Shown piece after piece: positions 32,776 through 33,058 of a DNA stretch of 33,474 nucleotides (its first letter is position 1; each line of letters opens with the position of its first letter). The DNA comes from a virus, in the IMG/VR virus record IMGVR_UViG_3300025528_000004. One strand, given 5' to 3'. Made by a program: the position numbers and the translations under genes. The notes under the pieces are model-generated. The model had not been told where the DNA came from. It saw only the letters and a list, made by a program, of their open reading frames with translations, and searched no databases.

Positions 32776-33058
32776 CGGGAGGGGTCGGGAAAACCATAAC
32801 ATCCATAACCACACCCCATAATCATGGTCTAAGCGTATGAAAAATAAGGGAAAGTCATGTTATGGTCTGACCATAATCTTAGTATAACCTCGACCCCCTG
32901 AAACCATAATCTCATTGAAATTAAAGGGCTTTTTTCGAGGCAGTGGTTAGGGTGAAAGACCATAATCTGGTTATGGTCATGTTATGGTGAATGTTATGGT
33001 CTAACTATTTGAAATTCCGCGGATGTTATGGATGTTATGGTTTTCCCGACCCCTCCCG
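32776..33058. repeat. 283-bp AT-rich module bounded by perfect 34-bp inverted repeats and containing 12 CCATAAY/RTTATGG heptamers (candidate iteron origin)
   Basis: Arms CGGGAGGGGTCGGGAAAACCATAACATCCATAAC at 32776..32809 and its reverse complement at 33025..33058. CCATAAY starts at about 32794, 32803, 32816, 32871, 32904 and 32960. GTTATGG starts at about 32859, 32970, 32981, 32993, 33025 and 33034. Confidence 0.85.

Follow-up and report, generated by a model that had tools for sequence, protein, structure and literature searches.

The window analysed here is the whole 33,474-nt stretch of IMG/VR record IMGVR_UViG_3300025528_000004, and it is a complete, att-bounded prophage of the P2/phiCTX-like type, whose host genus is probably Sphingomonas. 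Given the gene layout of the window and the att copies at its two ends, the circular phage has the order portal, cos, module, attP, int and Rep, where Rep is a primase-helicase and the module is an AT-rich repeat array of 283 bp (Table 1). The module is the homolog of the “R3 repeat” region of phage phiCTX, and it is thus a further member of the family of phiCTX-type cis elements that was first noted as these repeats. Because of its anatomy, the concerted evolution of its repeats and its strict linkage to the primase-helicase, we regard the module as a probable iteron-type replication origin that is used by the phage’s own Rep.

The outline of the module is set by an inverted repeat of 34 nt, whose arms are 100% complementary and lie 215 nt apart. 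The window has 12 copies of the heptamer CCATAAY, divided equally between the strands, and all of these fall within 32794-33040; the mean expected for the whole window is 2.1, with a maximum of 7 in 100 shuffles. When one mismatch to the octamer ACCATAAY is allowed, the module contains 14 sites, and the other 16 matches in the window are scattered singly, with no second cluster among them. The module has a GC content of 0.424, which falls to 0.391 in its interior, as against 0.645 for the window, and the lowest-GC stretch of 283 bp in the window begins inside the module (at 32818). The original prediction, made from the sequence alone, had described the arms, the twelve heptamers, two sub-palindromes and the low GC content, and had seen no open reading frame (ORF) that would explain the block. 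All of this was borne out, the positions of the sub-palindromes included, and no conserved ORF was found. A structured RNA, a promoter and a small ORF were each considered and rejected, as the module has no match to an Rfam family, no sigma-70-like promoter was found in it, and its 16-codon internal ORF is not conserved.

The single central iteron is followed by a core that holds no iterons and is conserved in the alignments. This core, a CATTGAAAT motif with a T-tract, is a candidate region for bending and unwinding of the DNA, in which integration host factor (IHF) would act and the strands would separate. The conserved T-tract and the two TTGAAAT motifs, together with the IHF sites annotated for phiCTX, are sequence-level features; the phiCTX sites, as given in GenBank, stand at places equivalent to that of the CATTGAAAT motif in the window.

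Table 1. Positions of the module, its parts and other features of the window.
Feature	Position	Strand	Composition or basis
Whole module, AT-rich iteron array, candidate replication origin	32776..33058	.	Anatomy, profile hidden Markov model of relatives, phiCTX annotation
Left arm	32776..32809	+	GGGGTCGGGAAAA, then two iterons 9 bp apart (ACCATAAC, TCCATAAC)
Right arm	33025..33058	-	Exact reverse complement of left arm
Convergent iteron pair	32859..32877	.	GTTATGGT-c-t-g-ACCATAAT; position kept family-wide
Single central iteron	32903..32910	+	ACCATAAT; conserved CATTGAAAT motif next
Conserved non-iteron core (candidate bending and unwinding region)	32912..32940	+	CATTGAAAT and T-tract (GGGCTTTTTTC); alignments
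Central cluster of four iterons	32959..33000	.	One +, three -; spaced 10-12 bp
Second conserved TTGAAAT motif (putatively IHF-like)	33005..33018	+	Alignments
Rep, 889-aa Zn-ribbon/Toprim primase fused to P-loop helicase (proposed initiator)	3315..5984	-	Toprim_2; PHROG 1139 “DNA primase”, phiCTX orf37 family
Predicted C-terminal winged-helix domain of Rep (proposed iteron reader)	3336..3605	-	About residues 794-883
GapR-like DNA-binding protein	2910-3302	-	PF10073, E 1e-32; directly downstream of Rep
Tyrosine integrase	104-1216	-	
Two tandem CI/LexA-like repressor genes	7313-7972, 8019-8696	+	HTH_3 and Peptidase_S24
Large terminase ORF	29450-31345		
Portal ORF	31045-32328		
P2-type cos core	about 32505-32545		Reverse complement is GGCGAGGCGGGG
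TGATGCASC repeats (candidate terminase-binding sites)	32556, 32639, 32706		
att sites	1-69, 33406-33474		Exact 69-bp direct repeats
ATTTCGGGA pairs (likely integrase arm-type sites)	135-157, 33316-33337		Copies at 135/146 and 33316/33327

Related phages carry about 25 homologous modules downstream of portal and cos, and in these the positions of the repeats are kept while the spacers have diverged. A profile hidden Markov model built from the first set of modules led to diverged copies in relatives L084, L093 and L083. The 14 modules of the family that were measured are 279-410 bp long and have GC contents of 0.31-0.48. The perfect “terminal inverted repeats” of the window are its version of a family-wide design, CGGGAAAA plus two iterons, whose general form is CGG(G/A)AAA(A) and then a pair of repeats spaced by about 9 bp, with the unit in opposite orientation at either end of the module. 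This design is seen in phiCTX, Smp131, RSY1, Halomonas 4908, ESSI2_ev239, UFJF_PfPro, Mae-JY29 and L103. In phi3 the paired iterons are present and the GAAAA stretch is missing, and phiCTX has a well-formed right arm but a degenerate left one.

The phiCTX counterpart (NC_003278, 35100-35390) measures about 290 bp, has a GC content of 0.34 and two annotated IHF sites, and lies between attP and cosR. It resembles the window module in having GGGAAAA and two repeats in inverted outer arms, a central repeat cluster in two orientations and IHF-like motifs, and in its location between attP and cos; the Rep of phiCTX is 43% identical to that of the window. It differs in its repeat word (GGTAAY in 12 copies, rather than CCATAAY) and in its imperfect left arm. 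The window has every trait of the phiCTX R3-repeat family that was tested, i.e., the AT-rich island, the arms, the word array and a Rep of PHROG 1139. The GenBank record of phiCTX says only “containing R3 repeats” and gives the IHF sites, with no function named, and no function is assigned to the phiCTX-type R3 region in the literature searched, which lay outside the original phiCTX papers (the 1999 genome paper included). The assignment as an origin may therefore be new, although the kind of element is well known.

Within the family, the repeat word changes as a unit. Between the window and L084, L093 and L083, the word differs together at 10-11 aligned homologous positions, being ACCATAAC in the window, CTATAAY in L084 (with AAGGTAAT at the outermost sites), (G/C)ACCTAAC in L093 and GYGYAAC in L083. 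Further words were found by a scan for repeat clusters and by direct reading: GGTAAY in phiCTX, Smp131, RSY1, Halomonas 4908 and L101/L103/L106/L115, RTCACA in ESSI2_ev239, GGAACA in phi3 and BIBS67, CTGACA in UFJF_PfPro, and TGGAAYAT in Mae-JY29. When 14 modules were cross-tabulated, each contained 4-16 copies of its own word (7-16 for all except L083) and almost none of the words of the others. A replicon-specific array of short repeats is a trait of iteron origins, and the module shows it in the concerted switch of its words between lineages. The scan, which was based on 6-mer clusters, missed the module of Mae-JY29, whose word is degenerate and which was found through its GC minimum, and negative scans are accordingly not absolute.

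Whether the block might be mobile, as a miniature inverted-repeat transposable element (MITE), was judged by its copy number and position; the original prediction had offered this as an alternative to an iteron origin. Copies were counted on the window, on viral contigs, on a Sphingomonas replicon and on species genomes other than that of the window’s host. BLASTN against phage records gives one relative, 72% identical over the whole module and in the same position. A search for the pattern of both arms finds nine IMG/VR contigs with a single copy each, and the 17-nt arm alone finds 11 viral loci. In 185,579 species genomes, the 17-nt arm has 43 loci, of which two are real modules, both in Sphingomonas and one per genome, and the remainder are single chance matches. 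A 395-kb replicon of Sphingomonas parapaucimobilis carries one copy, without annotation, 33 kb from its Rep gene. These searches, of the kind that had been proposed to recognize a MITE, thus gave single copies only, which lie beside cos in most lineages. In every relative, at protein identities of only 50-70%, the module stands downstream of portal and cos, and it has diverged in step with its phage. The AAC triplets noted on either flank (32773-32775 and 33059-33061) are indeed there, but no relative has the same flanks, so that the triplets amount to a 1-in-64 coincidence rather than a target duplication. Since it is present in a single copy, at a constant position and with no conserved target duplication, the block is a conserved site of phiCTX-type P2-like prophages and not a jumping element. 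Anatomy of this type, an AT-rich block with inverted repeats, is not by itself sufficient to call a MITE.

The presence of the module follows that of Rep, which is the sole early protein of the window with homologs in phiCTX, RSY1 and Smp131. The module is present in 13 of 13 genomes in which Rep and the relevant region are both visible, from alpha-, beta- and gammaproteobacteria. The set comprises the window, five IMG isolate contigs, L084/L015, phiCTX, Smp131, RSY1 and Halomonas 4908, as well as ESSI2_ev239, phi3/BIBS67, UFJF_PfPro, Mae-JY29 and the S. parapaucimobilis plasmid. No such repeat cluster occurs in P2, which uses the gpA replicase, and no module was found at 26 portal loci with a gpA homolog within 5 kb.

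IMG contig 3300025528_000251 (L078 and L165), which with L166 is among the closest structural relatives, has portal and gpD proteins 93% identical to those of the window and a conserved cos block, and it retains homologs of CI, the Cro-like protein, Ogr and the proteins of ORFs 6407..6958 and 2439..2729. In L165 (13768-14556), however, Rep and the GapR-like gene are swapped for a 262-aa protein with DUF1376 and DnaT domains, and the flanking early genes are kept, which is a clean replication-module swap; the same is true of L166 (6660-7445). No module is found in the 2.9 kb from cos to the end of 3300025528_000251, where AT-rich cargo ORFs lie instead. L080 and L166, from another metagenome, show the same pattern, with the membership of these two contigs in one genome being unproven. 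The GapR-like gene is conserved in the Rep loci of the Sphingomonas clade and is lost with Rep in L165, but it is absent from the beta- and gammaproteobacterial phages, phiCTX, RSY1 and Smp131 among them, so that no protein other than Rep accompanies the module everywhere. The module of phi3 and BIBS67 begins 35-70 bp past the Rep stop codon. A search for a stand-alone origin with Rep on small plasmids or satellites gave four plasmid matches, which are phage-sized episomes or a megaplasmid prophage. Presence that depends on the initiator in this way is a second trait of iteron origins.

Rep has the motifs of a primase-helicase, with a Zn ribbon, a Toprim domain and a Walker A sequence (GPPGTGKT). 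An AlphaFold2 model of its last 210 residues has a mean pLDDT of 90.8 and a strand-helix-helix-hairpin topology at the end, i.e., a predicted winged helix, which we propose as the reader of the iterons. The best PDB match of these 210 residues is the self-loading helicase Cch of the staphylococcal cassette chromosome SCCmec (5dgk; probability 0.98, E 0.02, TM-score 0.41-0.44), a match that is weak in absolute terms; the next structures are DNA-binding domains of heat-shock factors, with low probability. A sequence search of PDB with Rep returned nothing. The original prediction had called Rep P4-alpha-like. This is right for the architecture, as both proteins have the order Zn ribbon, Toprim, P-loop helicase and C-terminal DNA-binding domain (in Rep, the winged helix), but the tests of family membership by sequence failed. 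BLASTP of Rep against P4 alpha gives weak colinear matches that cover the Walker A region only (E 0.001), and hhalign gives a probability of 51%. In Pfam, Rep matches Toprim_2 only, whereas P4 alpha matches Zn_Ribbon_Prim, Toprim_3, D5_N, DUF5906 and Pox_D5; with none of these five alpha-defining families matched, membership of Rep in the alpha family is not supported.

The closest mechanistic models, by analogy, are P4 ori/crr with alpha and the origin of the Staphylococcus aureus pathogenicity islands (SaPI) with its Rep. P4 crr is a 300-bp element with 10 octamers in both orientations, and it is located next to attP and directly after the alpha gene. It is similar to the window module in having short repeats in both orientations and adjacent pairs 9 bp apart, and its position after the replicase gene is that of the module in phi3/BIBS67. 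P4 differs from the window in having two separated elements, ori and crr, with the octamer TGTTCACC, where the window has a single element. In the SaPI ori, two sets of iterons flank an AT-rich region directly 3' of rep, and the C-terminal domain of the helicase binds this ori. The resemblance of Rep to the SaPI/SCCmec system lies in the Cch match described above; the differences are the other host phylum, the separate primase and helicase (fused in Rep), and the position of the module, which is usually far from rep.

In the mechanism that we propose, the 12-14 copies of ACCATAAY would be iterons, arranged as two inverted terminal pairs and a central cluster, and Rep would bind them through its C-terminal winged helix. 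IHF would bind the two conserved TTGAAAT motifs and bend the DNA, so joining the outer and central Rep-bound sites. The AT-rich core with its T-tract could then open, and Rep might load itself there as a hexameric helicase and prime synthesis, much as alpha does at P4 ori/crr and SaPI Rep at its iteron-flanked AT-rich ori. Of the readings offered at the outset, the comparative evidence favors an iteron origin served by Rep, because the module tracks Rep across genomes, its repeats switch in concert and Rep ends in a winged helix. Further support comes from the module abutting the Rep gene in phi3/BIBS67, the coincidence of Rep swap and module loss in 3300025528_000251, the match in size and design to P4 crr, and the confidence of the winged-helix prediction and its resemblance to that of Cch.

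Several observations weigh against an origin read by Rep. In a sliding-window comparison of phages with the same and with different iterons, no 40-residue segment of Rep separates the iteron classes. The Rep of L015, which has CTATAAY, is 70% identical to that of L016, which has CCATAAY, whereas the window and L016 share a word at 62% identity, and the winged helix is nearly invariant among the window, L015 and L016. GGTAAY is shared by four phages with Reps only 41-52% identical to one another. A specificity determinant was thus not found in Rep. In addition, L078 ends 2.9 kb past cos, so there may be room beyond for a displaced module. Finally, a distance of 170-560 bp separates the module from cos in most lineages; a role in packaging would account for this as well, and the proximity holds even in ESSI2_ev239 and UFJF_PfPro, where cos is not beside portal. 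The position of cos in phi3/BIBS67, where the module is next to Rep, is a guess: a first candidate was dropped as it lies inside an ogr-like gene, and a second one (BIBS67, at about 11509) is plausible though unproven, its position matching those in ESSI2_ev239 and UFJF_PfPro.

Among the alternatives to an origin, the one that survives best, though unlikely, is that the module depends on Rep and acts in cis without being the site of initiation, either as a crr-like enhancer or as an array for copy control or handcuffing that titrates Rep. P4 requires its ori together with a separate 300-bp crr of the same design, and the co-occurrence with Rep would fit such an element equally well. Complete relatives, however, show one cluster each, as does the window with one mismatch allowed, and if the sole array bound by Rep were not the origin, Rep would have nowhere else to start.

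A role in packaging has a smaller chance of being correct. Here the module would be a cosB-like array to which the small terminase subunit and IHF bind and which sets terminase in place at cos, in the manner of lambda cosB with its R sites for the small subunit and its IHF site. The distance of 170-560 bp from cos is found in the window and in about 20 relatives, and cos proximity is kept in Mae-JY29 as well as in ESSI2_ev239 and UFJF_PfPro, although the neighborhood of cos differs in these; lambda cosB, too, is a repeat array with an IHF motif, at most a few hundred bp away from the cos nick. Unlike cosB, the module tracks the replicase and is missing from relatives with the same cos and terminase. 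L078/L165 keep cos, with packaging genes about 93% identical, and P2 and the 26 gpA-type relatives have homologous terminase and portal genes, all without a module, whereas a cosB-like site would be co-inherited with cos and terminase. Moreover, the cos core block remains 90-97% identical while the iteron word changes, and in phi3/BIBS67 the module abuts Rep (with cos there only inferred). The three TGATGCASC repeats between cos and the module are better candidates for a terminase site, by analogy to R4-R6 of phiCTX; similar repeats, TTGATGCA, are present in relatives with other iteron words.

Slightly less probable again is an array for a different DNA-binding protein of the phage, for example a regulator, an excision factor, or a silencer or insulator at the edges of the cargo hot spots. 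The failure of any Rep segment to co-vary with the iteron class would be explained by this, and variable cargo genes border the module in many relatives. However, CI, the Cro-like protein, Ogr and the proteins of ORFs 6407..6958 and 2439..2729 are all kept in the relative that lacks the module, and among early proteins only Rep is common to all module-bearing phages. The integrase has arm repeats of its own, two copies of ATTTCGGGA on each side of att. Integrase arm sites were rejected as an identity for the module because it stands on one side of att only and the ATTTCGGGA pairs fill the arm positions instead. With the crossover point at the 3' end of the att repeat, the module ends about 410 bp short of it and 347 bp short of the first base of the repeat, whereas arm sites would be expected within about 200 bp of the crossover core on both sides. 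In Smp131, L003 and L084 the module is kilobases from attP. A partition site had also been suggested; no pointer to one turned up, and no separate test for it was made. A MITE or other non-autonomous element inserted in the prophage, as the perfect 34-bp repeats, flanking AAC, low GC content and lack of an ORF had suggested, can be dismissed, because the block is present once per genome, replicon or contig at the same position in diverged phages and diverges with them, its arms are imperfect and its AAC flanks not conserved in relatives, and its repeat word switches by lineage, the copies inside the arms included.

The remaining features of the window are those of a P2-like prophage. The terminal 69-bp repeats are att sites, and contain 31 bp of upstream sequence and the 5' half of a tRNA gene (anticodon TAC, presumably Val), cut after the anticodon loop; unrelated phage DNA comes next after the left copy. 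What the phage carries thus seems to be the 5' half of the tRNA gene with the sequence upstream of it, where a 3' part is usual. On the module side of relative L001 there is a 3' half instead. The four copies of ATTTCGGGA are the only ones in the window and form two tandem pairs, each spaced by 11 bp, which are likely to be arm-type sites of the integrase; the repeats R1/R2 that flank attP in phiCTX (TTGTTCCCA) correspond to them. Further along the window after Rep are an Ogr-like gene, the two CI-like repressors and gpD. Relatives L165 and L166 have one CI paralog each, and these are different ones (75% and 77% identical to those of the window). Position 32328 marks the end of the terminase and portal genes. 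The large terminase and portal ORFs overlap by 300 nt (31045-31345) in different frames, and tblastn matches in relatives run through this overlap.

Variable cargo genes are found on either side of the cos-module block, both in the portal-cos interval and in the one that runs from the module to attP. Examples include AT-rich ORFs, an ATPase-like ORF, a nucleotidyltransferase-like ORF and, in RSY1, VgrG, and the loci are L078 (6230-9134), L080 (6480 onward), L084 (7060 onward), L159 (RSY1; 546-7582) and L160 (Smp131; 30939-32812). The block is intact in most genomes inspected; in L078, L080 and L081, cargo follows cos directly and there is no module.

Two database records have oddities of their own. 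Mae-JY29 (L249; PP438421.1, “Microcystis phage Mae-JY29”) is a P2-like genome of 64% GC with a phiCTX-type Rep, a duplicated P2-type cos motif at about 12268-12310 and a module at about 11925-12215 with an inverted repeat of ~40 nt, and its stated cyanobacterial host is doubtful. The RefSeq record of the Escherichia phage ESSI2_ev239 (L161; NC_049392.1) contains an Illumina Nextera adapter (CTGTCTCTTATACACATCT...ATCTCGTATGCCGTCTTCTGCTTG) and a poly-A run at 29124-29203, directly after the cos-like sequence GCAGGCGGGGGC; this cos-like end lies 460 bp past the module.

Phages of the phiCTX type, which are lysogenic converters, are widespread; their host genera include Pseudomonas, Ralstonia, Stenotrophomonas and Sphingomonas. 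Parts of phiCTX serve in genetic tools, yet phages of this type have no annotated origin, and the block is left unannotated in genome records. The link between Rep and a readily recognized module of 280-340 bp would provide a concrete and testable origin, as well as a sequence signature for the annotation of phiCTX-type prophages, and at least eight natural iteron variants are at hand for the study of specificity between origin and initiator. A more speculative idea, which we hold only tentatively, is that the iteron word defines groups of replicon specificity among near-identical phiCTX-like phages, with origin and Rep forming a two-part cassette that is exchanged or re-specified as a unit. 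If this is true, kilobases of the phage circle would separate the two parts, which in the prophage would stand at its two ends, and specificity would come from very few residues, or from some partner in place of the conserved winged helix. That the module nearly always stands beside cos would then reflect a functional coupling of initiation and packaging, and these phages would offer a natural system in which initiator and origin change their specificity jointly.

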